Shown here in pieces: positions 6,282-45,198 of a stretch of DNA of 64,000 nt (the stretch's first letter is position 1; each line of letters starts with the position of its first letter). The stretch comes from Fistulifera solaris (taxonomy: Eukaryota): positions 744,001 through 808,000 of the forward strand of contig AP026140.1 of assembly GCA_030295235.1 (NCBI GenBank). Direction: 5' to 3'. A program made the position numbers and the translations under genes. Below the pieces are notes generated by a model, which worked only from the letters and a program-made list of their open reading frames with translations, made no database searches and was not told the DNA's origin.

Positions 6282-7053
6282 TTTGAAGTTCGCTAAACCT
6301 CTCTCTATTCATGAAAGGTCAATCTGTCGCACTTTCCAATGAGGTTTACTTTAACGCTTGTTGAGAACAGAGAAGTTCGCTGGCAACAAGCCATTTTCCA
6401 AAGAAGAAAATGAATGAGATAAATAAAATAAAGCTTCTCATACCTTTGCGTTTGTATGTTGTCAGTCATCTGCAATTGAGTGTGGGCATGTAAAGTACAA
6501 TTATTTTGTCGTAATTCACGGTCTGTACATAGGTTAATCGGCTTAAAGTGCCTGAAAGCTTATGCGGCCCACCGGCGTGGGCCGAAAAGTGGGCTCGATG
6601 GGTCGGCCCAGTGTACACTAAGCGACTATAATAAACCATGAACAAGCCCAGCATCGAAAAGTTTAGTACACAAATTATTACAGTACCTACACAGGAAAAT
6701 CTCACCTTAATGAACCGAGGGTGCCCGGCGCGCAAGAAAAACACCTTCCGGCCCTCCGTAGAAATTTGCGTACAATTTGTACTGGGCCTGAAGTAAGAAG
6801 TGGGCCTGGGCCTGGGCCTGCTTGACTACTTATTATGCTATACTAAAGATGGAGCCCAACGAGCCCTGTTGGGCCGGTGAAGCTTTCAGGCAAAAGAGCT
6901 GCGCCTGCGCGCATTCATAAAATTCAAACAAAAGCAAAATCATTGCAAGGCGCCATGAGAAAGATGAGCTGATCATAAAGCATCTTTGATGATAAAGATA
7001 GAAAAGAAAGCAACAATTTCCCTTTAAGAAGTTAGTCGTCCTGTTTATTCGTG

Positions 7054-16488: not shown

Positions 16489-17534
16489 CTAACGACCTTG
16501 CTCAACAGCCAGGCGCTCAGCATGATTCAATAGTTGCTGCTTGACGACCTCAAGATACCCCAGACAATAGCTATTCATATCCAACGCATTCACTCGATTT
16601 TGTCGAAGGGAGCTTCCGCTTCGGCGGCCGCCCCATCAATGCCCAACCACGCAAACGCTCGCCGTCACAATCGGAATGGTGGCCCAACCCCAGGAAGGTC
16701 CCCATAGATATGGAAAAAGAGCAAAGCAAACACGATGAAGGTCCGTGAAATGCGCCACGTACACAATCGGCAGCGGTGTCCCACGGATTCGTTCCAATCC
16801 ACCGCAGCATTCAAGCAACATGTCGACGTGTGTTTCTAGTGCCATCAAATGCCAGCGCATACATCTGTGCCACACCAACAGGAGTATGTTCGGTGACACG
16901 AAAAATGGCATTGATGTGATATCGCGCTTCATCAAAGGCATAAATGGGAGGATGCGTGTTCGCCGACAAACGGTAGACTTCGTCTTTAGACAATATTCGG
17001 AAAAATTCAAAACTGGCAGTTCTTTAACACCCCGCAGTAACTCCATACTGCAATGACGGACGCCACGATCCATCGGATCGCTTCATCGCGGTGATACAGA
17101 TTATCCTCGGCCGTATGGGCAATGATACAAGCGGAAAAGGCCCGAGCCCGGGCAATGAGCAATCCCCACAACGTCCGTGAGGACCAGTACCGATCCGCGG
17201 CTCGATTGAGACGAAATACTAGCAAAAAGGACAAGGTCGTGTTGATGACGAAAAGAACATTTCCCAGCTTTCCATAGCACGATCGTTGCGTTGCAGCCAC
17301 AATTTCGTGAGGCGTATAGGCCGTCGCATGCAACACCAGCAGTGTCAAAGGCAACGGCAATGAGATCGAGAGCTCGTCCCTCAAGAACGAATATCGTTTT
17401 CATCCACCCGTCATTGCTTTTGGGATAATTTCGTTGACAACTGCCCTCGGCGAAAGCAATTGTGCGGTTCGTACATTTTCGGTACTGCAAAAGCGTTTGC
17501 AGCAATGGAATTCTGTTTTCCGGCTCTTCGACAT
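16489..17534 (-). CDS. Bestrophin-like anion channel, paralog 2 (tandem with paralog 1); many indels, either sequencing error or pseudogene
   Basis: Fragments in several frames align with paralog 1: LLQTLLQY, FAEGSCQRNYPKSNDGW, SFLLVFRLNRAADRYW, ERIRGTPLPIVYVAH, PYLWGPSWGWATIP and QLLNHAE..*. Confidence 0.8.
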
Positions 17535-17744
17535 GCGTTTATTCGTTGTTGGGTCAAATAAAAACGGAGAGTAATGAGAATGAAAAAGAAAAAGAAAGAG
17601 AAACAGTACAAAGGAGAAACACTTTTGACGTCAATTGGCGCCGTCGCCGTCTTCAGCGTCATCGTCGTTTTCACTGCAGAACGCCGAAAAACAGAGAACT
17701 GTTACTAATTGCGGGAGCGTTAATTGCGTGGTTATTTGGGTGAG

Positions 17745-17831
17745 CGAAATAAGGCAGTGGTGTAAAATTATGACTACAAGTGTTACATCTACCACGGAGG
17801 CTTCCCGTCTGTACTACACTCGGTTATTTCG
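17745..17831 (-). repeat. 3' LTR of element A (87 bp), termini CGAAATAA...TTATTTCG
   Basis: Identical to 24460-24547 except one C in a C-run; preceded on the minus strand by the purine tract GAGGGGA. Confidence 0.93.
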
Positions 17832-17955
17832 GTCCCCTCACGATGAGACCCGAGCTAGGGCTTCAACGTGTCCTTCATAACCGATAAACCCTTATTTCAT
17901 GGAAAAACAACATAAAAACCATGACGATTCATTCATCGAATCCATCCTTCATCAT

Positions 17956-18025
17956 GTGGAAAATACATCAAAACCACACATCGACTTGTCCGTGGAAAAT
18001 ACGTCAAAACCACGTATCAAACTTG
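17956..18025. repeat. 36-bp imperfect tandem duplication in the 3' UTR of element A
   Basis: gtggaaaatacatcaaaaccacacatcgacttg at 17956 and gtggaaaatacgtcaaaaccacgtatcaaacttg at 17992. Confidence 0.8.
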
Positions 18026-18132
18026 AAACTTCAATCACTGTACCTGGACGAAAAACTTATCCCCAGGAGGCTCATCCCATCGGAATAGTAAACATAACTA
18101 CCCAACCAGTGCATCGGGACCTATCGCCTGCA

Positions 18133-21100
18133 TCACTGATGTAAAATACGCTTCACCAGTGGATCTCGTACATTCCCAGCTTGAATCTTCGTCAGAATAT
18201 CTGCCAAATTCGTCTTCGTAGGCTCGTAGGATACATCAACGATACCCATCGCAACTTCAGCTCACGTACATAGTGATATGCCACCGAATTGGACTTCTTC
18301 TTCAGAACTGATTCAGGAATACTCGAGTTCTTGATCACCGACATATTGTCACCTTTGACAACCGCAGGATCTTCTACCGGAACACCCATCATCTGTAGTT
18401 TGTACCGTAGACCTTCGATTAACTCGACCGCCCGTTTTCATAGCACTAAACTCAGCACCAAATGTGGACGTCTCAATCGAAGTTTGCTTCTTGCTGTACC
18501 ATACTGTCAATGACCTGTTCAAATAGATCAAGACACCTGTACGGGAACGACGAGTAACATGGTCACCCACCAAGTCAGCATCAACGAAACGTTATTTGCA
18601 CAGGCTTACCCAATGGCTTTGGACAATCCGTCGGAATCATAGGCTTAGCATCTCGGTAAAAGTCATTCCAATCAGGTCTAGGTTGTCTGGCGTGCTCTAC
18701 ATACGAAGGATCGAACACAATCTTAGACCTTTCATGTGACTTCAAATATGCAAAGACATGCACAACCGCCGCTAGATGGCCTTTCCTTGGCATCGCACTG
18801 TGAGACGCAAGCATCGAAACTTCACCACAAATATCAACTCTTCCAAGCTCGACCATCCAGCGTAAAACCCCTATCTGCGAGTGATAAAACTGAATTTCGC
18901 CGTCATCGCACTCCGGCGATATGTCAAGCTCCGGACGATACTTCGATGGTAAAACACTTGACGCCTTCTTCGGGTAAAGCCTCATCTCGCTTTTCCAACC
19001 AAAGACAAACGTTTCGTATTGCTTCCTTCACATATTCATTCGAACTCATCGACCAACAAGGCTTTTCATCACCCGGGAATTGATGCTGACCAATCGTCGA
19101 ACCCAAGTAGCGAAGTTGGCTTGCCTATCGAACCTTCTTTCAGAAGAAAGTGTTGATCAAGCTTGTATAGAATAGCTTCCGGCGCCACAGAAACACACAG
19201 GATGTCATCCGTATAGACCAATACCAACTCGTAGTAACTAGTCCCATCCGCTTTCTGTGCCGGCCGTATCCATACATCGTTATCCCATTTCGACAAGGTG
19301 TAAAACTCAACGACTCATGCAAACACTCACTCAGATATGACCTCCACGCAGCTCCAGAACTCTTCAGTCCGTAAAGAGCTTTCACGATTTTCGCCTTTCG
19401 ACCTTTGAACTGTGGACCAAATTCGGCACCGCAAATAATAAAGATTCGTTCTCGAACTGGTGCATTCAAGTACGCATTTCCAATATCTGCCGCCATAATG
19501 TCCAAATCGTTCAATGCCGCTAGTAGGAAGGCAATCCGCACGCTTTCCCTCGATACAACACTAGCATAGGTAATCGAGCTCGGCGGATCCGTCATGTGTC
19601 CCCCCTGCTACGGCCGGGCCTTCCGTGTGAAATCTGGTTTTATATCAAAAACCATGTGAACCCCAATCTTGGTAAAACCAGCAGGATCGGAGCGTCTTCA
19701 TCAAGGATCTGAAACGCCTCAGCTACCGCGACGCATCTCTTCGCAATCGCCGCCCCAAAAGTCAGTTCCCGTGAGCGATCAATCGCCAATGCTTCTTCGA
19801 CTGTCTTTGGCAATGCGATCCCATATTTCTGAGTAACACGAAAGTAGCGCTTAGCCATCGCTTTGATGATCCTGGTCCTTCTCTTGAGCTTTGTAGGGAA
19901 CCCACCATGAGAAAGCAGGCTCCTCAGCAATCTGTCTCGCAACAGCAAATTCCGCTAACTGTAAAGGGTGAGACTGCTTTAGGTCTTTCAGTTTCTCCCA
20001 AGTAGTAGTGCCATCATTCCATAGACAACACAGTTTCCATCCCTTGGTAGTCCGCTTAGGATACTTTCGGTTGTTGTGGATCACGAATGCCTCTTCATGC
20101 GGAACCGCGTCGACTCTTTCTTGTAGTCCACTATTTCCTTTAGGACATAACTCGCACGCCCATGGTCATCCACTTCGGCATAGATGGCTTCAGCGATCTG
20201 ATTCGCATGATAAGCCTCCACTTCACCCGTATCAAATTCAATCTCATACAGAGCGGTATCGAGCAAAGGGTTAGGATGGTACCGGCCAATAGGATTCCCG
20301 TCTTGATCGTGCTTCCGACCTTTAACCGTACCGTACGACATCGAGTCCCCTTGCGGAAGCATTACCCTTGCTGAGATATATTGATTGTATGAATCGTAAT
20401 CAAACTCATCAGCTTCCTTTATCTCGGGAACTTCGGGATCATGCGACTCGGTCGGAACATAGTATTCCAACTCTGGGGTGCTTCGTCTTCCGGTATCTCG
20501 GTCGGATCCAAGGGCATGGCTCGGTCCTTCAGCTTTTGCTCCAACGTCTGCGTGAACTTTGCCTTCAACTCAGCAACGGCTTGGCTATTCTGTTCCTCAA
20601 CTGACAAAGGGAAAACACTTGTACGGGAAATCGGTCGACCAGAAGCGGGTAGGATCCTAGCACATAGGACATCACCGACATCGGAAACTGGGACCAAGGT
20701 ATCTTCCAAGATGCTTCCTTTCCATATTTTTGTCTTGAGGCGAGATAAACCAAACCCAATCATACCAACCGAACTCACAAATGTGTGAAATATCAGCGGT
20801 GTCCCCTGTCAAAAGCGTCTACGGCACTTCACCATCTAACTGTCTTATGGAAAGACAAGAGTGGCTCCGAACATACGCGTGGTAGACCAAACATAGGTCC
20901 CATAGACAACGTGGGGAATTCGTGCGAATCATAGCACGCCTATACATCCTTTTCAATTCACGAATGCCGTCTTCAGCGAGGGTTGGCGTTAGCGTGTGCT
21001 TCGATCGGCCTAATGGTCGCTTGCACTCGCTATGCCTCTTCGCTTAAACTCTCCTGCTGTCAACTCTCCGGCATTGTCTGGAATTAAAGTGTGAGGGACT

Positions 21101-23585
21101 CCGACGACGAAACAAGTTTGTCAAGCGTGTAATGGGCATCGCTTTTCAATCGGGTCCACACATATCCAGTGAAAGGGGGTGCAATACACAGCCGCATATT
21201 TGTTACCCAGCAGTGAGACACATGTACCGACCAGAATGTCGCGAGTACATCTCCGTATTAAGCCGAGGATAACGCAGCTGGTACGCAAATGGTTTGAGAC
21301 GGCGCGTTCCAGAGACTGTCGAGAAGTCCCGAATTGCCCGTTGCGTCGTTTCGCTGGAGCGTTCGCCTAGCCGTCTCGATCCCTATACTCCATCATTTTG
21401 CCAAATCTTCGGGTGTGACATATGCTTTCCGGTTCTTCGTTGAGATTGCGGCACTTGTAAGCGAAGCAGCATACGAATCGATGTCAAAAGCTGCCGAACC
21501 GCTCAGCTGAAATCACAGCAATCGAACGAGCTGGCGGGACAAACGTCGCGCTCACTCGTAACCGAACCAAGCATCCTCTGTCCCCCTAAACGAAGCTCAG
21601 AGTCAAGGGAAACACGCAATGAGTCCTCATCATGCTGGCGTGGTTAGAATCCATAGGATCCCAGAACGACTCGGAGGTGACGTTTACATGGATGCAGTCA
21701 ACGTCCGAGCTCAGTTCTTTGTCGGTCGGTCGGCGAGTGGGGAAATATGAAATAGTCCCCATCAGTTTCAAAGGAATCTGGAGAGCTGGCTCAGAAAACA
21801 AAATAGAATGGCTCTCCGGGCGACGTTGTTCCGGGAGGTAGGTGTAGGAGAGGAGTTTCATTCACAACGACTTGGTTGTGCCGAAGTTGAGCGGGGCTGA
21901 TCAAGTGTCGATGCATGTTTGAAAAGTAGAGTGACTGGTGAAAGAACAAAACGTGGGTTTGCAGCGTCGTGGGGCAATCGTATGCAACCGCGAACTGTAC
22001 CAATGGGAACTTTGGTCACTTTCCCAAGAGAACTAATGAATGGTTCCACCGAAACTGTTTCGGCCGGTATCATACACGAGAACCGCGTCTTTACCGAACG
22101 AGCAAGTATCACAGTGCGAGTCCAATTCAGCTCTACCAGGAGTCTGTTGTCGCATTGCCGCCGCGAACTCGCTGCACCGCCAGTCAAGGTCGTCGACTCA
22201 TGCGGTTACCTGTCGACTCAACCACATCGTCACTATCGGAGTCAGCCGTCTCAACAGCTGAAGCATTTCGCGTCTCGGACTTAGCCCTTTCACGAGCATT
22301 GCGAACTTCTTCCTGTTTCTCTTTCGGTAACTTGATCCACTCCTTCCATTTGTAGTACGGGACACCATCCTTGCCTTTCTTTGCTTTTCCGCCCTTTCCT
22401 TGACCAGATTTGCCGCCACCTTTCTTGTTGTTACCGCCAGAATTTCTGGTAACCGAAGAAATGTTGCGAGTGGAACCACGGGTCTTTGCTGCATCTTGCT
22501 TCTTTCTATCAACCTGCTCAGCCAAGTAGTTCATCGCGTTTTCGAAGGTACTTTCCAACACAGCATCAGCCCGGACGCTCGGCGCTCATCTTTAGTTCAT
22601 CTGCCCAGATGTTGTCTAGAAAGATTCGTACCTTCCTATCTTCAGTCATCACCTCACCCGCCTCTTCCAAGTCCAAGAAAGCCAAGTTAAGCTTCTGACA
22701 GTAGTCTTCAAAGGTAAAGTTACGCCTTTCCATCATAGAAGACTGTCGAAAGGACTCGGTCGGCATGAGCAATGTTGCGCTTCTGATAAGAACGCCCCAT
22801 ATAGTGAGTCTTCAAGGCAAAATAAGCGGCGCGTCCATCTTTGCTGTAAGCAAAAGGCTTAACCCAATTCCAAGCTGGTCCACCGTGTGAAACCTGACGA
22901 ATAACGCTCCACAGCATCATATTGTCTTCTTCATACTGGTCTCCATCATGGCGAACGACGAACAAGTTCCGACATAGCATCAGGGACACCGAAACCTGGA
23001 TCATCAACCCCTTCGATTCCATCGGGATCGACATGCTCCCGCACAAGGTATGACAAAGGCGCACCATAAGCTCCAAGGTGATTGCCAAGTACCTCGTCGA
23101 TGTCTTCAATCGTCTTCCGAGCGTTTTCCACCTTCAACAACACATCGATCTTAGGAAGATCTTTGTTGGTCTCACGCGACGAATGCGCTCACGCCATAAA
23201 GTCCAAGCGCGTTCCAATCGAGCAAGAGTTGCAAAGCCAGGAACAAACTCGCTGCAAGCGGTGCAAGTGGAAAAGGAAGTAGCGAAGCTGACGAACACGG
23301 AGCTCAAGATTGACTCCGATCGCAATACCACGGTTCGGAATCATCGCAGGTACCATCGGTGCAGCCTCCGCTCCAACCGCAGGAAGGACAAAGGCTGGGT
23401 TTGGAATCAAACCCCCAGGGTTTCGAATCTTCGTAAAGATCTCCTGAACGTACTTATCACTCCGGTGCGTCAAGTCGTCAAACGCTGGTAATGCCTTGGC
23501 CATTGATGGCCTGACGAGCTGCCGCATCCTCAATAAAGAGGACATCACGGAGGTAGTTGTTGAATGCAGCAAGATTGGCTGCCAT
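18133..23585 (-). CDS. gag-pol polyprotein of element A, fragmented by many indels
   Basis: Gag start MAANLAAFNNYLRDVL; DGRAAYFALKTHYMG; ITYASVVSRESVR; DIGNAYLNA; KALYGLKSSGAAW; YTDD; SRTGVLIY..WYSKKQ..ETSTFGAEF; GDN; DILTK. Confidence 0.9.
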
Positions 23586-24447
23586 CGTAAACAAGGAGAA
23601 AGGAGAGAAAAGTTCACAAATCGGAATGCGAGGGAGATAAAACGAAACGACGTTTTCTTTTCTTTTTGTGTGCGAAACTGCATAACGCTTTGCACGAAAT
23701 TCCGACCCCTTTACTCTCCCTTCGAGAGTGTTGCTTACTGTAGGGAACTCCAGTGTAAAGCGTCAAAAGTGCCCTTATGTACGTAAGGCCATTGTACACA
23801 CTAGCCCATACAGAACAATCGTCCACACCCTCATTTAGCTCTGAATCCGTTCATAGTCAAAAAGACAGATCGGCCTAAACAGTATAGAACACGACCTCGG
23901 ACAGGCCAAAATACACGCACAACACGATTTCACTTGCGCAACTTCTCGCGAAATCCGACGATGTTGTGCTTTGACCGCCTCTGGAGGAAAAACATCCCTC
24001 CACCATGAGGACTTCGCAACAATCGGGTGAATAATTCACTCATTTATGTATTCTAGCATTAAAGGTGTATTAGCATGCATACGAGGCGTCCCCCATATTT
24101 TACCGACAAGTGACATAATCACTGTGGTCCGATGCATCCATCGACAGAGCCAGAACTGTCAATAAAGGAAAGCAACGGTGCTTCATAAGCGCTAATTACC
24201 TCACAAACCCAGCCATCTAATCAAGACATATGATTAACATGATGACTCCATGGGGTCGACCTATACATAAGGTCATGATCTCACATTTTCATGTGGACAA
24301 TTGTCGACTTCCGACAACGCCGAGATCATCTCCTTGACCACTCAAGCCCAACAGTTAGTAACACATACATAAGGAACATTACTCTTACGATATTACCATT
24401 GTTTTCCTGTGTATTTCATCGTTTCAGAGGGATTCATCGCGAAACCC

Positions 24448-24459
24448 CGGCTTTTAACC
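24448..24459 (-). promoter_or_regulatory. Putative primer-binding site GGTTAAAAGCCG, complementary to the tRNA-Lys(UUU) anticodon arm
   Basis: Directly abuts the 5' LTR. The plus strand reads CGG-CTTTTAA-CC, i.e. stem, 7-nt anticodon loop, stem, in the same register as the hemivirus PBS GGTTATGGGCCC. Confidence 0.7.
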
Positions 24460-24547
24460 CGAAATAAGGCAGTGGTGTAAAATTATGACTACAAGTGTTA
24501 CATCTACCACGGAGGCTTCCCCGTCTGTACTACACTCGGTTATTTCG
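24460..24547 (-). repeat. 5' LTR of element A (88 bp)
   Basis: Direct repeat of 17745-17831. Confidence 0.93.
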
Positions 24548-24639
24548 TGAGCGCGATCTGATTGGCTGTTGGTACGTCATAACGTTCCCATAACGTCTTT
24601 TGAAAACTACAAAAAAACGACGAATGAAGACGAATGAGC

Positions 24640-24666
24640 TGTCTGTCTGTCTGTCTGTCCGTCTGT
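24640..24666. repeat. (TGTC)n microsatellite
   Basis: tgtctgtctgtctgtctgtccgtctgt. Confidence 0.85.
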
Positions 24667-24884
24667 TAGCGCCCTTCGAATGAGTAAAACTCGAAACCCT
24701 CGTGAAAATAAAGTGCGGCGGAGATCCTTATTTTTGGCGCGAAGATGAAGATCTTTCAAATTTTTTTTTTTTTTTTGAAAGCATCCGTCCTTGAATTATT
24801 GGATAAGAATTGACCACAATGAACTAAAAACCCCGCGATCGGTTCGTATTTTTCTTCTGTGAGTTGTCTCGGCGTCAATATTCG

Positions 24885-26111
24885 ATGATGAGCAGCAGCC
24901 ATAAGCGAGCACGCACGCTCGACGAAGATAGTGATGATTCTTCGTCGTCCGCGGACTATTATTACGCCGTTCTTAGCGGAACCGAAACGGGCATCTTGTC
25001 GAGTTGGTTTCGTGTCATGGAATGGACGGGACATGGATTCACTTCCTATCAAAAGAGAGACTCGCCGTTGGAAGATTTGCGACTGGAAATTCGACAACTC
25101 ACTCGACAACTGATCGAAGTCAAACGGAGGATGGTCGGTGATCACTACAAGGAAGCTCGACGAGCCAGTAATCCGTACGAATTTTTGGGAGAAGGTCAGA
25201 ACGGAGGACTCAATTCGCTGTTCATGAATCGTTCCGCGATCAAATTGGCGAATTTGGACGCATTGCTCGATTGGCAACTCACTACGCAACCAAATTTTGG
25301 ACCCTTTCGGTTTGTCGATTTGTGTGGAGCACCCGGAGGTTTCTCGGAATATCTCATGCGTCGATGTGTCAATTTGGGTGTACACGAATGTCAGGGATTT
25401 GGTATGTCGTTGTTGGGTGTCAATGAATATGGTGCGGGCGTGGCTTGGAAAATCGATGACTTTTGTTATTATCAACAACGAACCAAATTAGAGTTTCAGG
25501 TATGCTGGAATGGAAACGGCGATATTTTGGACTGGAACAATGTGCAGGAACTCATTGCGATGGTTACAAAAGACTCGGAAACGTCGAAAGTGCAGTTGGT
25601 GGTAGCCGATGGAGGCTTTGATGCGCAACGGAATGCGGAAGATCAAGAAGGCATGACACAAAAGCTCATTGTGTGTGAAGTAGCGGCTGCTTTGGAGCTT
25701 TTGGACGTCGGAGGCACATTAGTGCTCAAACTCTTTGGCTTTCAGACACCCGTCGTGCAATGTGTGATGCGGTATCTCTATGCATCGTTCGAGCGCATGG
25801 TGGCGTTAAAACCGATCAGTTCACGGCCCGCGTCGGCGGAGCGATATGTCATCTGCTTCAATTTTCGAGGAAATGCTTCCAATTTTGATGGTCAGCGCTG
25901 GAAGAATCAAATGTTTCTCGGTCAGTTTGTTGCAGACGTGCCGACGGAAGAACTGGAGTCGTACCTTTGTGAGTTTGATCGAAATATGCTTGTGCTGAAT
26001 CTCAAAGCCTGTCATACAATGTTGTCGTACGTGAAGAGCGAGGAGTCGTGGGATATCCCAGAGCTTTCGGTCGATGCCGATGATTACCGATTGTGCTGGA
26101 GGCTCATGTGA
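24885..26111 (+). CDS. Cap-specific mRNA 2'-O-methyltransferase (CMTR1-like FtsJ/RrmJ domain)
   Basis: NPYE, FMNRSAIKLANLD, FVDLCGAPGGFSEY, LVVADGG, VLKLF and KPISSRPASAERYVIC; the K-D-K-E tetrad is present. Confidence 0.9.
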   Translation: MMSSSHKRARTLDEDSDDSSSSADYYYAVLSGTETGILSSWFRVMEWTGHGFTSYQKRDSPLEDLRLEIRQLTRQLIEVKRRMVGDHYKEARRASNPYEFLGEGQNGGLNSLFMNRSAIKLANLDALLDWQLTTQPNFGPFRFVDLCGAPGGFSEYLMRRCVNLGVHECQGFGMSLLGVNEYGAGVAWKIDDFCYYQQRTKLEFQVCWNGNGDILDWNNVQELIAMVTKDSETSKVQLVVADGGFDAQRNAEDQEGMTQKLIVCEVAAALELLDVGGTLVLKLFGFQTPVVQCVMRYLYASFERMVALKPISSRPASAERYVICFNFRGNASNFDGQRWKNQMFLGQFVADVPTEELESYLCEFDRNMLVLNLKACHTMLSYVKSEESWDIPELSVDADDYRLCWRLM

Positions 26112-37914: not shown

Positions 37915-38185
37915 TGAAAGAATTACACAGTGCTGGAGTGTACCAATCCCGGGTGCAGTCACGGGTTATGGTTCCTTAGCAATTCTCGGAGCTTTTGTTC
38001 TTATTCCGATGGAAAGCGGTCATCCTGATCGTCAAGTAATCGTGGGGAACGATTTAATGTAGAGAATAGAATAATGACCGCTCACTGGGTAGCAAAGGAT
38101 GCAAAACCTTCGCTTCACAAATGGTCACAATTTACGCTAGCAGCTTTTTCACGTCTGTTTATAGCGTTACTTCTATATTCTTACA
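37915..38185 (+). repeat. 5' LTR of element B (271 bp)
   Basis: tgaaagaattac...ttcttaca; no difference from 44928-45198 seen by eye. Confidence 0.96.
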
Positions 38186-38229
38186 GTTTATCAGAAAACC
38201 CAAAGACTTTACAAACCAGCTCAGCTACG

Positions 38230-41200
38230 ATGGACTCCTTTGAACGCATGATGGAACGCGCAATCGAGGTGATTGCAGCCGGTGGGCCCCCGCCAGAGGT
38301 TCCGATTGATATCCCTGAAGGACCGGTCATTCCTCATGTCCCGGTCAACTACCGCATCCCTCAAGGCTTTCCGAACCCGCCACCGCCCGCTCCATTGGAA
38401 GGGGGAAGTCGCTGTGCGCTTCGTGCTCACGCAGTGTGGCTTGAATAACGATCAGGCGACGCGCTTCATGGATATGAGTGTCAACTCCCTTGAGGACCTC
38501 TCCGAGGCAAGAGAGTCCGAGATTGAAGACCACATCAAGTTGTTGAGTACACCTGTTAACCGCGGTGGGGCGATCTTGGGACTCGGGAGTGCATCGAAAG
38601 TGAAGGCCGGGCGTCTCTTTTGCACGAACTTGCTCGAGTTGGTGAGGGTGGTGCAATCGACGTCTACAAGGTCTCTCTTCCGACTCTTCAGCGTGGCAAG
38701 TCGAAGTCGCGCTATCAACGACGTGGATGACAAGATTACAGTCACTCCACCTTCGTTGTTCGACCCAAAGGACTGGGTTTCTTTCAAGGATGGCGTTGAG
38801 AATTATTTCCGCCAAACGAAGGGGACAAGAAAAATTCCGCTCTACTACGTGATTCGCGAGTGATGATCGTCCCGATTTCAGTACTATCAGCTTCGCCCGA
38901 GTCTCGCATGTGGAGCGCCTCACACTCTGGACCCGAGTACGATAACGATAACGCACGTGTCTATCAGCAACTTGTCCAGTTGATGCGCTGAACCGATGCG
39001 TGGACTTACGTGGTTGGGACATCGGAAGCTGAAAATGGCCCTCAAGATGGACGTGCCGCCTGGCGTCGACTTTGTCGCCACTACGACGGCCCTCATGCTG
39101 TCGAGAAACGTGTTGCGCTTGCGACTCAGGAGTTGCAGCAGTTGACCTATAAGTCCGAGGCTGTGTTTCCGATGGAACGTTCACGTCACTCGCATGTCGA
39201 ACTGCTTTCGCATTCTTGCACAAAACAAAGCGCCCGAAATCGACTCGCGACAAAATCAATTTCTTTCTCAACAATATCAAGAATCCAAACGAGTATCTTC
39301 TTTCCTACATTGCTCGTGATACAAGTGTCGAATTGAAGCAGAATTTCAAGCTTGCTGCCGATCTCTTGTTGGAAGCTGTGAGTTCTACTGCCCAGCTTCA
39401 TGAGCGCGCGCCACCGGAAACAATCGAACGTTTAGAACATCAATTCCAAGCGTGGAAACGGTGGAGGCGGTGGAAGCGGATCCAACAAGAAGAAGAAAGG
39501 CAACAACGGGCAAGGACCTCCTAAAGGAGCTTACACTTTGGAGGAAAAGAACGGCAAGAAGTACTGCAATGGAATCGATGTCACCGCACCCAAGCGCACC
39601 TTCACGCGTGAAGAATGGGGAAAACTCGGTGATTACATCGAAGTCTTGAAGAATGCTTGCAAGGTCAGCGTCCGCAAAGTCGAAGAAGTCGAATGATGAC
39701 GAAACGGTGAAGGCAAGCAACGGAAATGGCGGCCGCCCGGCACTGGCAGTTATGATGATTGACGGTCCGGCGGTAGGACCAGTGGTGAGAATAGGAGTGT
39801 TTCGGTGCTCCGAGTGACACAAACACGTAAGCTAGCAAAGCTTTTAACCTCTACACCTAATCCTACTGACGCCTAACTTTAAATCTAGATGTGAACTCGA
39901 TTCACATGCTGACACCACTTGTTTTGGTTCCAATTTCGTTCCGATCGGCTGGACCGACATTACTTGCACTGTTTAGCCTTACAGCGATGACTATGAAGCG
40001 AAGACCGATATTCCGATCGCTCATGCAGCTACAGCATATGATGATCCGGTTACAGGTCGAGTTACTATTTTAGTTTTCTACAATGGACTTTGGTTTGGAA
40101 ATCAGCTAAAAGATTCCCTAATCAACCCAAATCAGTGCCGCTCCTTCGGCATTGACCTTTGCGACGATCCGTGGGATCGATCTCGCGGTTTGCGGCTTCG
40201 TGTTCCCGGCGAAGGCTTCGAAATTCCGTTTACCTACGAGAAGAATGTTGTCTTTTTCGAAAGCGAGTACCGACACAAGAGGAACTTGACAAGTGTTTTC
40301 GCGTAAAAATGACTTCAAAAGTCGCCTGGGATCCTGCAACTATCGGTGCCCCACGATTGTCGCATGAAGAGGAGACAAAACGGCGACTTATCGGCCAAGT
40401 TCGGATCGATCCAGCCATTGTTTCCAACGACACTGCAGCGCTTCAATTGGATAGCAAAGAATTCGATGTATTGTTGAATGATTGTAGCGCAGTTTTCTCG
40501 GAAGAGGTGTTTACTCAACGGTTGATTGCTGCGGTTCAAATTGCCTCCGATTGTGACCCGCCGGAACCTGAGGGGCAGACCTCAGGGGAGTCGAATCAAG
40601 AGGAGCCAAGCTTTCAAGTCGGCGCAATCAACGTTAACCAGCGCCATTCTCGCGCTACTCCGGCAGAAATATCCCGAAGATTTCATTGTGGTCTCGAAAC
40701 GGCGAGTAAAACCATCAACGCCACCACGCAATTTGGAGTTCGGACTGCCGTCGGACCCCTGGTTCGACGATACTACCCAGACTTGTTGCAGATGAAGTAT
40801 CGAAGACTCCGAAGCACCTTTTTCAACGACACCATGTTCTCCAAGACGCTCAGTCTGCGCGGTAATAAAAGCGCTGGAAGTTTTCACAGATGGCAGTTAC
40901 GTTTCCGTAAAGCCGACACCAGACAAGACAGGCGAGACGGTTGCGAACGCTCTCCGTGAGCTCATCCAAGAGGTCGGAATACCCCAGAAGATAGTGACCG
41001 ACGACGCTAAGGAGAAGCTCGGCCCCAAGACGAAGTGGATGGAGCATGTCCGACAGTACAAGATGGATTGGGCAAACACCGAGCCATACTCTCATTGGCA
41101 AAACCGTGCAGAAGATGCGATTCGAGAAGTTCGTCAAAGATGGAAATTGTTGCAACATCGGAAGTCGATACCGAAGCGACTTTGGGACTATGGTTTAACA

Positions 41201-44032
41201 CACATCGCCGAGATTATGTGTCGAACTGTACGAGCTGGATCCGATCGAACCCCCCACGAAATAGTGACAGGAGACACGCCAGATATCTCCGAATACTTGG
41301 ATTTCGACTTCTATGATTGGGTTTGGTACTTAAATAACCCGAACGACAAGGAAGATCCGCTGTCACTTGGACGATGGCTAGGAGTTTCTCATCGCGTAGG
41401 ATCTGCTATGTGCTACTACGTACTGACTCAGAAAGGGATAGTTCTGTCAAGAACTTCGGTTCAAGGTGTTACAGTTCAAGAACATTTATCGGATGAAGTG
41501 CGTGGTCGCATGGAGAAGTACGATCTTGAAATTGGCAGTCGTCTAGCCGATGAAAAGTACACAAATGAAGCAAGTGCCGACGGAATAATTTTCCTCGAAG
41601 ATCTCGAATCTACAGTTGAAGGTGAAGAAGACAGTCCAATCAAAGATGCCGATGATCTGTGGGATGAAGATAACATGCAAGCTTACGACCATTATGTCAA
41701 TGCAGAGATTCTACTCCCAGTCGGTGATGGAAGGATAGCTGGAACTGTCAAGAAACGCAAGCGTGACTCAGACGGGAAACCAGTCGGGAAACGCCACCTT
41801 AATCCTATGATGGATACAAGACTGTACGAGGTTGAACTTGCTGACGGTACTGTGAGAGAACTTCACGCGAACAATATTGCTGAGTGCATGTTTTCCCAAG
41901 TTGATAGCGAAGGACGCCGTGTCGATTGTTAAAGGAAATCACCAATCATCGAAAGAACGCGTCAGCTGTTTCAAAGGAAGACGGAGTTGTACTTATGCCC
42001 AACGGAAATAAAGCGAAGAAATTAACTACGCGCGGTTGGGAGCTACATGTTGATTGGCAAGAAGGGACATCCGATTGGGTACCTTTAAAAGAATTGAAGG
42101 AAGCTTATCCAGTACAAGTTGCGGAATACGCGAGGGCAAACAAGATTGATGATGAGCCAGCATTCGCGTGGTGGGTTGGTCATGTTCTTCGAAAACGGAA
42201 TCGAATTTTGGCGAAAGTTAAATCACGATACTGGAAGACGACTCACAAATTCGGTATTCGAATCCCCAAGACTGTAAAGGAAGCACTTCAAATCGACGAA
42301 GAAACCGGTACTGATTTCTGGCGTCGCGCAATCGAGAAAGAAATGGGCAAGATTAACGCTATGGGCGCTTTCGAACGGTGGAATGGCGGAACTGCCGACG
42401 ATCTTCGGAGTGGAAAAGTCAAACTACCGGGCTATCGAGAGATAACTTGTCACATGATTTTCGATATCAAGATGGATGGAAAATTTACAAGAAAAGCACG
42501 CTTTGTGGCGGACGGTAACCAAACTGGTGAAGTCCCAGCGCACCTCACTTATTCTTCAGTCGTGACTCGTGAATTGGTTCGGATCGCATTTCTTTATGCC
42601 GCACTCAATAATTTGGATATTCTCGGATGCGATGTAACGAATGCTTACTTGAACGCGCCATGCCGAGAAAATTTGGGTGAAAGCCGGCCCCGAGTTCGGA
42701 GATGATTTAGTGGGCGCCTGCATGCTGATACGAAAAGCGCTTTACGGGCTTAAGAGTTCGGGCTATAGTTGGAGGAAAGCACTTTCTGAGACACTTTCCG
42801 ACATGGGCTATCAGTCAACAGTAGCCGATTCAGATGTCTACAGACAACGCAGCACTCGCAAGAATGGAAGTCACTACTGGGAATTCATTTTGACTTATGT
42901 CGATGATATTCTGTGTGTCAGCGAGAAGCCCGTTGAAACTATGGACATTTTGAAAAGACTTACGCACTTAAGGAGGAGGCTGCCGAGCCAGAAAGATACC
43001 TTGGTGCGAACATCGCTAAAGTTCAATTGGCTGATGGGAGAACAGCTTGGTCGATGTCCAGTAATGATTATGTCAAAGCCATTGATGTTGTCAAGGGAAT
43101 GCTTGCGGAAGACCATAAAGTGTTAAAGCAAGGAAAGGGCAGTGATCGACCGATGCCACAAAATTATCGTCCAGAGGAGGATACAACTCGCGTTCTCGGC
43201 GATAGGTTAGCCTCAAGATATCAGCAACTCATCGGGATGTTACGTTGGGCTTGTGAGTTGGGGCGAGTTGACATTTTGCTAGAGACAGCGTTGATGTCGA
43301 CGTGTTTATGTATGCCACGTGAGGGTCATCTCGAAGCGGTCTACAAGATATTCGCGTACTTGGACGCACACAGGCAATCCAATATGATCTTTGATCCGAA
43401 AGTTGTGGAATTGAATGAGTCTGCGTTTAACAAAACAGATTGGGCCGATTCGGTTTACGGTGATGTGAGTGAAGAATTACCCCCGAATGTCGCCCGAGCC
43501 ACTCGGAATGCCGGTGCACATCACGTGTTTCGTTGATGCGAATCATGCTGGTGACACTCAGACACGGCGATCGCAAACAGGGTTCATCATTTACTTGAAC
43601 AACGCGCCGATCGATTGGTATTCCAAGAAGCAGAATACATGTGAATCTTCTACATTTGGGTCTGAGTTTGTTGCAATGAGAATAGCGGTGGAGAGAATTC
43701 GTGCGCTCAGATATAAGCTACGGATGTTCGGAATACCCATCGCAGGTCCAGCTATAATATTGGGAGACAACGAAAGCGTGGTCAACAGTGCATCCAAAAT
43801 GGAAGCGCGATTGAATAAGAAGCATAACGCGATTTGCTTTCATGCTGTCAGAGAAGCTTGTGCAGCCGGTTGGATTCGAGTTGGCTGGGAGCCTACAGCA
43901 ACGAATATAGCAGATTTATTTACCAAGATGCTTCCAACAGAGAAACGGCGGGAACATATGCAGAAGATCTTTATCAAGAAAGTGAGACGGATTTCTAGTG
44001 ACAATTTTCTTAGCAAGTTTGAGTCATGTTAG
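38230..44032 (+). CDS. gag-pol polyprotein of element B, fragmented by indels
   Basis: IPLYYVIR, QDGRAAWRRLCRHYDG, FFNDTMFS, VTDDAKE, EPYSHWQNRAEDAIRE, TGDTPDISEYLDFDFYDWVWY, RKARFVADG, KALYGLKSSG and STFGSEFVA. Confidence 0.92.
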
Positions 44033-44927
44033 TGACTGATTTTCCATAGTATTTGTGTAGTCTACTACTTATACTACACAAAGACGGCGCATCGGTATTG
44101 CTATTTAGACTTCGACTGTCTATTTGAAGATAGAGTCACTTGGATACCATTGGGAGTTATTTGAAGTTGCAGTTACAAGGTTTGGATACCGTTGAGAGTG
44201 CAACGTCGACAATTTTGCAGACGTGGACATGTTTCTTCTCTTGCCACGACTGACTGTCACGTAGACCTTCAGTACATTTCTTACGTGTCGTAGCCAACCT
44301 ACGGAAGCCTACGGAGCTATGTTCATTTTCTACAGGAATCCAGTACTTGTTTTCTTTGCCACCTCAGCACAAGTTCACGAAGATTGGAGAAAGGTGTGCA
44401 ATCATTTTCCATTAGAATAGGTCTCATAAAATAAGAAATCAATCAATCTATACCGAGTTTACTGAGTCTTCTTTTTGTGGTGAAATTCTCAAGGTCACAA
44501 GCCTTGCGAGTCGATCTACATCCTTTGAGTCCAGGCAGGCAGACAGTGAGTAAGTAACAACAAGCGCACTGTGTGGTTGTCTTTGCTGATTATTGCAATC
44601 AAAGAGTGTTTGCGATATCAGTGCTTTCGTTTGTCAGTCGATCATCTCATCAAAGAGTGTTGAGTTGGTTGATTGTCGTCTTTGGCGTGAGGATATTCCG
44701 CATTCCGAATTCCGTGAGCTATCTGTGCGCTCGGAATTTCTGTCATCTAGCAAGAAAGACGATGGCGTGGGATAGCTATCGAGACGCGGGGACTGTCCGC
44801 AGTTCCTCCTGAGCTTCCAAAAGGGTTGTGCGCGATACAAGTGCAGGTTGGATTGATTAAGCGAACTGTGGAATTCAGAAATGAGTTGCGATCGACGGTT
44901 GAGGCACCTTAGTCGACACGAGAGGAG

Positions 44928-45198
44928 TGAAAGAATTACACAGTGCTGGAGTGTACCAATCCCGGGTGCAGTCACGGGTTATGGTTCCTTAGCAATTCTC
45001 GGAGCTTTTGTTCTTATTCCGATGGAAAGCGGTCATCCTGATCGTCAAGTAATCGTGGGGAACGATTTAATGTAGAGAATAGAATAATGACCGCTCACTG
45101 GGTAGCAAAGGATGCAAAACCTTCGCTTCACAAATGGTCACAATTTACGCTAGCAGCTTTTTCACGTCTGTTTATAGCGTTACTTCTATATTCTTACA
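44928..45198 (+). repeat. 3' LTR of element B (271 bp)
   Basis: Direct repeat of 37915-38185. Confidence 0.96.

Follow-up and report, generated by a model that had tools for sequence, protein, structure and literature searches.

The window analysed here is a stretch of 64,000 nucleotides from Fistulifera solaris (GCA_030295235.1, contig AP026140.1, positions 744,001 to 808,000), and all coordinates below refer to it. It contains a retrotransposon bounded by two unusually short long terminal repeats (LTRs), at 17745-17831 (87 bp) and 24460-24547 (88 bp). We regard this element as a likely case of a young, autonomous copia insertion of the CoDi/Blackbeard kind, with 87-bp LTRs of the form CG...CG, a 4-bp target site duplication (TSD) TGAG and ends that work as they stand. 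That the CG ends are working ends is concluded from their recurrence in other copies and in an LTR variant that has diverged, and the family looks active.

Terminal repeats and identity of the element

The two LTRs were found as a direct repeat pair in a repeat search of the window. Self-BLAST aligned them with 98.9% identity over 88 columns, the sole difference being one additional C in a C-run, which bears out the near-identical 87-bp LTRs described in a first-pass annotation of this DNA. CGAAATAA opens and TTATTTCG closes each LTR copy, and direct reading confirms that these form a perfect 8-bp terminal inverted repeat in both copies, as had been noted before; the match stops at base 9. TGAG adjoins both outer LTR ends (17741-17744 and 24548-24551). 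Within the window, two LTR probes (27-30 nt) match at the two LTRs alone (0 matches in 100 shuffles), and self-BLAST detects no third copy or solo LTR of the family there.

The LTR ends read CG...CG and do not show the TG...CA that is usual for copia elements. Neither TG nor CA is obtained from any boundary placement within the 7-nt ambiguity of the junctions that is discussed below. The non-canonical ends are real whichever placement is taken, and the annotated CG at all four ends stands.

The minus strand is the coding strand, as seen from the reverse transcriptase (RT) fragment and from tblastn with the related protein P0003. No long open reading frame (ORF) exists between the two LTRs. When 19 ORF fragments were compared with Pfam, RVT_2 (PF07727) was the sole accepted match, on the minus-strand fragment 19140-19607 (E 2.9e-11, 43.9 bits vs a cutoff of 31.6); DUF3102 reached 20.2 bits, under its cutoff of 24.4 bits. 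A search with the RVT_2 fragment returned 3009 relatives, among them P0002, P0003 and P0005, which are open frames of 1346-1348 amino acids (aa), 86-93% identical over 68% of the query, and which also contain RVT_2 at residues 839-1033. P0003 (1348 aa) has 93% identity to the RT fragment and is colinear with 22167-18136 on the minus strand in tblastn. Positions 320-408 of a profile (A1) built from 39 full-length relatives match the solved integrase cores of PFV (E 6.6e-5) and Ty3 (2.7e-4) and the chain 7z0h_W (0.02), a 635-residue chain titled 'Integrase' which we take to be the Ty1 integrase. Pfam's own integrase model had no match at E<=1 in these relatives. Since the integrase core (320-408) precedes RVT_2 (839-1033), the domain order is that of copia. 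On the strength of these domain matches the element is classified as a Ty1/copia retrotransposon, in agreement with the first-pass annotation; the RVT_2 score and the integrase core upstream of the RT carry the assignment.

A metagenome scan with P0003 yielded 35 loci, the best of which (L001) has 58% aa identity. The 521-aa product of ORF1 in L001 matches 23578-22617 across three frames with 32-53% identity, so that this region can be read as gag. On the minus strand, the order of the element is 5' LTR, position of the primer binding site (PBS), leader, gag, pol with integrase, RT and RNase H (IN-RT-RH), polypurine tract (PPT) and 3' LTR. The earlier annotation had placed PPT and PBS immediately inside the LTRs. 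Both positions do exist, but at swapped ends: because the coding strand is the minus strand, the G-rich tract adjoining the left LTR is the PPT, reading TCGTGAGGGGAC and then CGAAATAA on that strand, and the neighbour of the right LTR is the PBS side.

Other copies, the empty site and the element boundaries

Contigs of four public short-read runs were compared with positions 17000-25300. Directly beside the insertion site, at 24630-24783, there is a (CTGT)n microsatellite together with a short repeat, and this stretch was left out of the comparison as repetitive. In metagenome run X1, a contig joins 17739 to 24547 directly (83 letters on the shorter side, 7 of them ambiguous), and in X3, likewise a metagenome run, a contig reaches 17746 and then continues into a diverged version of the right flank. 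Both of these empty-site contigs bear one GTGAGCG, so the empty allele that had been suggested for inspection is at hand and the insertion is young, as annotated. The filled site is present in X2, where record 9 spans 17416-17772 and crosses the junction between flank and LTR. The insertion is polymorphic for presence and absence, and the family is apparently polymorphic between populations.

The inner ends of the LTRs are also covered by short-read contigs. The internal junction at 24460 is spanned by X1 record 8 and X2 record 16, both with 0 gaps, and position 17831 by X3 record 17 and X5 record 25, both with 0 other letters. As to the outer ends, the evidence from loose contig ends comes from 23 of 37 rows, those listed. 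Among these matches, four contigs start exactly at C17745/C24460, two in X2 and two in X1, and their outer flanks are unlike each other (agreement 0.6). One X5 contig, again among the matches listed, begins at 17741 and thus carries TGAG ahead of the LTR in an otherwise unrelated flank; X5 is a run from another organism. A diverged LTR variant in X2 retains CGAAATA beside the same internal sequence. The possibility that the loose-end consensus strings from X1 and X2 share a flank was considered and rejected, since an agreement of about 0.6 fits unrelated pairs; our guess is that tie-breaking in favour of A and C lies behind the similarity of the two strings. In X2, contig depths add up to about 200-317 along most of the element, with two bins at 120, as against 23-43 in the flanks, which is a hint at several copies and not a copy number; the family is apparently multi-copy.

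The two junctions share 7 nt, GTGAGCG at 17740-17746 being identical to 24547-24553. The annotated TGAG flanks are therefore present outside both ends, but the window sequence alone is compatible with a TSD of 4 to 7 bp. The empty site is silent on this length, since a TSD of 4, 5, 6 or 7 bp would in each case leave the identical empty sequence. The other copies are more informative. Since all five listed other-copy contigs keep C17745, the U5 terminus ...TTATTTCG-3' on the coding strand is a real 3' end. The window copy alone would permit C17745 to be part of the target, with a TSD of TGAGC, GTGAGC or GTGAGCG and an LTR starting with G or A. However, were C17745 flanking sequence, each independent copy would have it with a probability of about 1/4, and it is kept in all five of the listed contigs at the outer left boundary, of which four start there and one runs 4 nt further. 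We therefore consider it very improbable that this base belongs to the target.

A shift of the boundary by one base had been named beforehand as something that might overturn the CG ends. In the direction of TGAGC such a shift is disfavoured by the retention of C17745 just described; in the direction of GTGAG it deserves more attention. In that case, the TSD would be the 5-bp GTGAG (17740-17744 and 24547-24551), and the LTR would lack the base at 24547/17831 and be asymmetric on the coding strand, with a GAAATAA start and a TTATTTCG end, the G next to the PPT being due to chance. The junction identity spans GTGAGCG and so includes this placement, 5 bp is the commonest duplication of copia elements in general, a 5-bp duplication (ACAAG) is reported for one CoDi family in the accessible part of Maumus et al. 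2009 (PMC2806351), and the boundary at 24547 is fixed by no other-copy contig among the matches listed. Against this, a 5-bp TSD offsets one arm and thereby breaks the perfect 8-bp terminal inverted repeat, and neither Blackbeard, with its 4-bp duplication (PMC2806351), nor the second copia element of the window, which is most simply read with 4 bp, follows it. L001 has CG right after the same PPT, which speaks against GTGAG as well, though it is compatible with both placements. Overall, a 5-bp TSD appears rather unlikely to us, and we prefer the 4-bp TSD with CG...CG ends on three grounds: the 8-bp inverted repeat is then flush with both ends, the other copia element of the window is most simply read with a 4-bp GAAA, and Blackbeard, the named relative, has a 4-bp TTCC (PMC2806351).

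Several observations weigh against this preference and against our view of the element as a whole. Three bases must match by chance for the 4-bp TSD (1 in 64), and each rival placement demands as many. No loose end at 24547 or 17831 occurs among the matches listed, which leaves the U3 boundary without support from another copy. The four X1/X2 contigs may double-count, so that there are possibly as few as 2 independent copies, and the TGAG ahead of the X5 copy is unexplained, being either a target preference or a 1-in-256 chance. The putative PBS was matched to no tRNA gene, as ARAGORN found 0 of them in the window and in the 35 metagenome loci. Finally, pol is frame-broken, and genuine indels would mean that the window copy may no longer be functional.

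The last point concerns the state of this particular copy. In this assembly, pol falls into at least 23 frame segments with 22 frame switches, and neither gag nor pol is open. The dominant version in all four short-read runs differs from the window mostly by single-base indels, the window carrying mainly additional single bases (46 gaps vs 16 substitutions in a 3.1-kb piece). There are 96 indel places in all, and the 12 that are listed (20683-22062) are each located at a frame switch or within about 16 nt of one. Nearby single-copy genes are open, for example a 427-aa cap1 methyltransferase ORF with 93% identity to P0121. Because the switches coincide with contig indels and the single-copy genes are open, the frame switches are probably residual indel errors of the long-read assembly within repeats, which suggests that repeats in this assembly were left unpolished. 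The alternative is that the window copy is truly decayed. The family has open-frame members in either case.

If the assembly is poorly polished, one has to ask whether the CG ends, or even the whole structure, might be an artefact, or whether they might be mutated TG...CA ends. The predominance of single-base indels between element and contigs would fit an artefact, and so would the fact that the best runs contain only 63% of the sampled words of the element. However, short-read contigs span three junctions, and their matches end exactly at the CG. Mutation would not account for the ends either, as the motif is common to all four ends, to the other copies and to the diverged variant, which independent mutation would not yield. 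An origin of the CG ends by artefact or mutation thus seems hardly credible, even less so than the assignment of C17745 to the target. The features of the element, with the boundaries placed for a 4-bp TSD, are compiled in Table 1.

Table 1. Features of the CG-ended copia element in the window
Feature	Position	Strand	Basis
Left TSD copy TGAG (4-bp reading)	17741..17744	none	Direct reading; empty-site contig in X1
3' LTR, 87 bp; minus-strand sequence CGAAATAACC...CTTATTTCG; base 17745 is the terminal G of U5 on the coding strand	17745..17831	minus	Direct repeat; other-copy contigs diverge just outside 17745/24460
Polypurine tract region, minus strand TCGTGAGGGGAC	17832..17843	minus	Directly upstream of 3' LTR
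pol: integrase, RVT_2 reverse transcriptase, C-terminal RNase H-like block	18136..22167	minus	tblastn, colinear with P0003
RVT_2 match	19140-19607	minus	Pfam
Integrase core	about 21240-20950	minus	Profile match to solved integrases
gag (ORF1), frame-broken here too	22184..23585	minus	Homology to L001 ORF1; ORF fragments
Putative untranslated leader, about 860 nt	23586..24444	minus	Lies between putative PBS and first gag methionine
Putative PBS, minus strand GGTTAAAAGCCGGGG	24445..24459	minus	Position only, directly after 5' LTR
5' LTR, 88 bp, one extra base in C/G run	24460..24547	minus	Direct repeat; X1 and X2 contigs cross internal junction gaplessly
Right TSD copy TGAG	24548..24551	none	Direct reading

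Comparison with other copia elements

The element is inserted about 335 bp upstream of the start of the cap1 methyltransferase gene. This neighbouring protein shares 40-42% identity with proteins assigned to Nitzschia, Cylindrotheca and Mayamaea, which points to a diatom host. The nearest Atlas cluster bears the automatic name 'Blackbeard family protein' (0.99), which is a lead and not a test of CoDi membership. The following comparison with the CoDi elements of diatoms rests on the accessible part of Maumus et al. 2009 (PMC2806351), where Blackbeard and Surcouf are linked to the CoDi3 and CoDi4 groups. Blackbeard, CoDi3 and CoDi4 resemble the window element in their diatom host, the copia domain order and the separate gag and pol ORFs. 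Blackbeard further shares a duplication of 4 bp (TTCC) and an insertion that is limited to particular haplotypes or strains, with an empty allele alongside, and very short LTRs for copia are common to Blackbeard, CoDi and the window element. Within this similarity there is a difference in size, as the CoDi LTRs are 153-844 bp long (163 bp in Blackbeard), and 87/88 bp is outside this range and about half the CoDi minimum. Inverted termini of up to 8 nt are given for CoDi elements. TG/CA is present in 23 of the 26 CoDi families and missing in CoDi3.2, CoDi4.2 and CoDi4.3; the CG...CG ends may or may not be new relative to these three, since the comparison is with their described loss of TG/CA only (PMC2806351).

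Non-canonical ends have also been described in plants, where the accessible text of one study lists seven non-TGCA motif types, mostly of copia elements, with LTRs of 272 bp on average and insertion near genes (10.1101/137141). Examples are Tos17 (TG..GA), AtRE1 (TA..TA) and TARE1 (TA..CA) (10.1101/137141; PMC3701649, likewise in part). The plant elements are like the window element in their non-canonical ends, short LTRs and location near genes. In contrast to the plant types, in all seven of which the first T is invariable, the window element has C as its first nucleotide and G as its 3' nucleotide, and its LTRs measure 87 vs 272 bp (10.1101/137141). With these non-TG/CA families documented in diatoms (PMC2806351) and plants (10.1101/137141), at least in the portions of these sources considered here, the novelty implied by the first-pass annotation was overstated. 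The element is a more extreme case of a kind that has been noted before, namely short-LTR copia elements without TG/CA, diatoms included. In a limited search of open-access text, neither CG...CG ends nor copia LTRs below 100 bp were encountered.

A second, distantly related copia element occupies 37915-45198 of the window on the plus strand; its aa identity to P0003 is 27-50%. Its LTRs are 271 bp long and of the form TG...CA, GAGAGGAG immediately precedes the 3' LTR as the PPT and, in the simplest reading, there is a 4-bp duplication GAAA. Its pol is likewise split over alternating frames in this assembly. Genome and superfamily are the same for both elements, but the second differs by its canonical ends and its longer LTRs, so that the two types of ends exist side by side in this host genome.

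The metagenome relatives give only limited information on the termini. The LTR DNA of the element is common to none of the 35 loci, and three of the 15 loci longer than 4 kb have terminal repeats that are contig-end overlaps or truncated LTRs and provide no usable termini. A scan of 18 loci for purine tracts gave no further information, as there were no LTR pairs to go with them. In L001, the closest metagenome relative, GAGGGGAC is also followed by CG. At 6399-6543 of this locus the PPT is followed by CG and, 132 nt on, by ...TACG and a motif resembling the usual initiator-tRNA PBS of copia elements. L001 may hold a 132-bp CG...CG LTR in a collapsed assembly, the end of which cannot be fixed, and its tail has no similarity to the leader of the window element. 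Among viral contigs, a 16-mer gave 9 matches, none of them extending past the pattern, a 19-mer gave 0, and a protein scan found 0 relatives.

Possible mechanism and consequences

The altered integrase end specificity put forward in the first-pass annotation is an inference; the integrase of this family would join a ...CG-3' end in place of ...CA-3'. CG...CG differs from TG...CA by one transition at each end, and since U3 and U5 are separate sequences, the integrase would have had to accept both end changes. On the minus strand, the purine run GAGGGGA is 1 nt (C) away from the LTR start, and the one or two bases between purine run and LTR might be removed by 3' processing, analogous to the 3' processing of terminal bases in retroviruses. 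The PPT side is conserved in an X5 variant contig, which matches over the PPT and 27 nt from the start of U3, and diverges after 17843.

The complement of the 15 nt that follow the 5' LTR is CCCCGG-CUUUUAA-CC. In form, this sequence corresponds to one strand of an anticodon stem, a 7-nt loop containing the anticodon UUU and two bases of the strand that leads back. This would be consistent with reverse transcription being primed from an internal tRNA fragment, with UUU as candidate anticodon. In Drosophila copia, reverse transcription is primed from such an internal tRNA fragment. Rfam detected no tRNA-like match on the putative PBS region, and folding of the 5' LTR together with the leader gave a z-score of 0.06 and hence no sign of a self-priming hairpin.

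Since a mere 87 bp have to accommodate U3, R and U5, whose division within the LTR is putative, some of the transcriptional control is probably located in the leader of about 860 nt. Ty1 and Drosophila copia are known for control elements located in the leader. Going beyond the structural description, we tentatively propose an active lineage in which the integrase has switched from CA-3' to CG-3' at both ends (CpG sites), with the shortest functional LTR on record for an autonomous copia element (87 bp), control from the leader and maybe internal-tRNA priming. In this full form the proposal is a possibility that we rate clearly below the structural description, and somewhat above a 5-bp TSD.

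Short LTRs with unusual ends have practical consequences for annotation. Searches for LTR elements usually demand LTRs of at least 100 bp, and a TG/CA filter is frequently applied on top; LTRharvest, for instance, was run with an LTR length of 100-1000 bp in one study (PMC5445492). Finders with a 100-bp LTR minimum or a TG/CA filter would miss this family in diatom genomes, as the first-pass annotation had pointed out, and with it the load of transposable elements in diatoms and their recent activity would be underestimated. If the family does transpose with CG-3' ends, it would offer a natural test of how far copia integrases depend on a terminal CA, and it could reveal the smallest amount of LTR sequence in which promoter, R region and polyadenylation can be accommodated. 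For the field the consequences would be modest, since non-TG/CA copia elements of diatoms and short-LTR copia elements of plants are already recorded in the sources cited above, as far as these were accessible.

Some further contigs concern the surroundings of the insertion. A contig of single-copy depth in X2 (17773 to 24478) represents an LTR variant with an apparent 10-bp tandem duplication inside the LTR. In another X2 contig, the match to the right flank sets in precisely at 24548, and the preceding more than 250 nt are unlike both the LTR and the left flank. Joints of 17481 to 24802 in X1 and of 17481 to 24846 in X2 belong to contigs that leave out the element and its surroundings, 7.3 kb in all. 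There are apparently several divergent haplotypes of this intergenic region.

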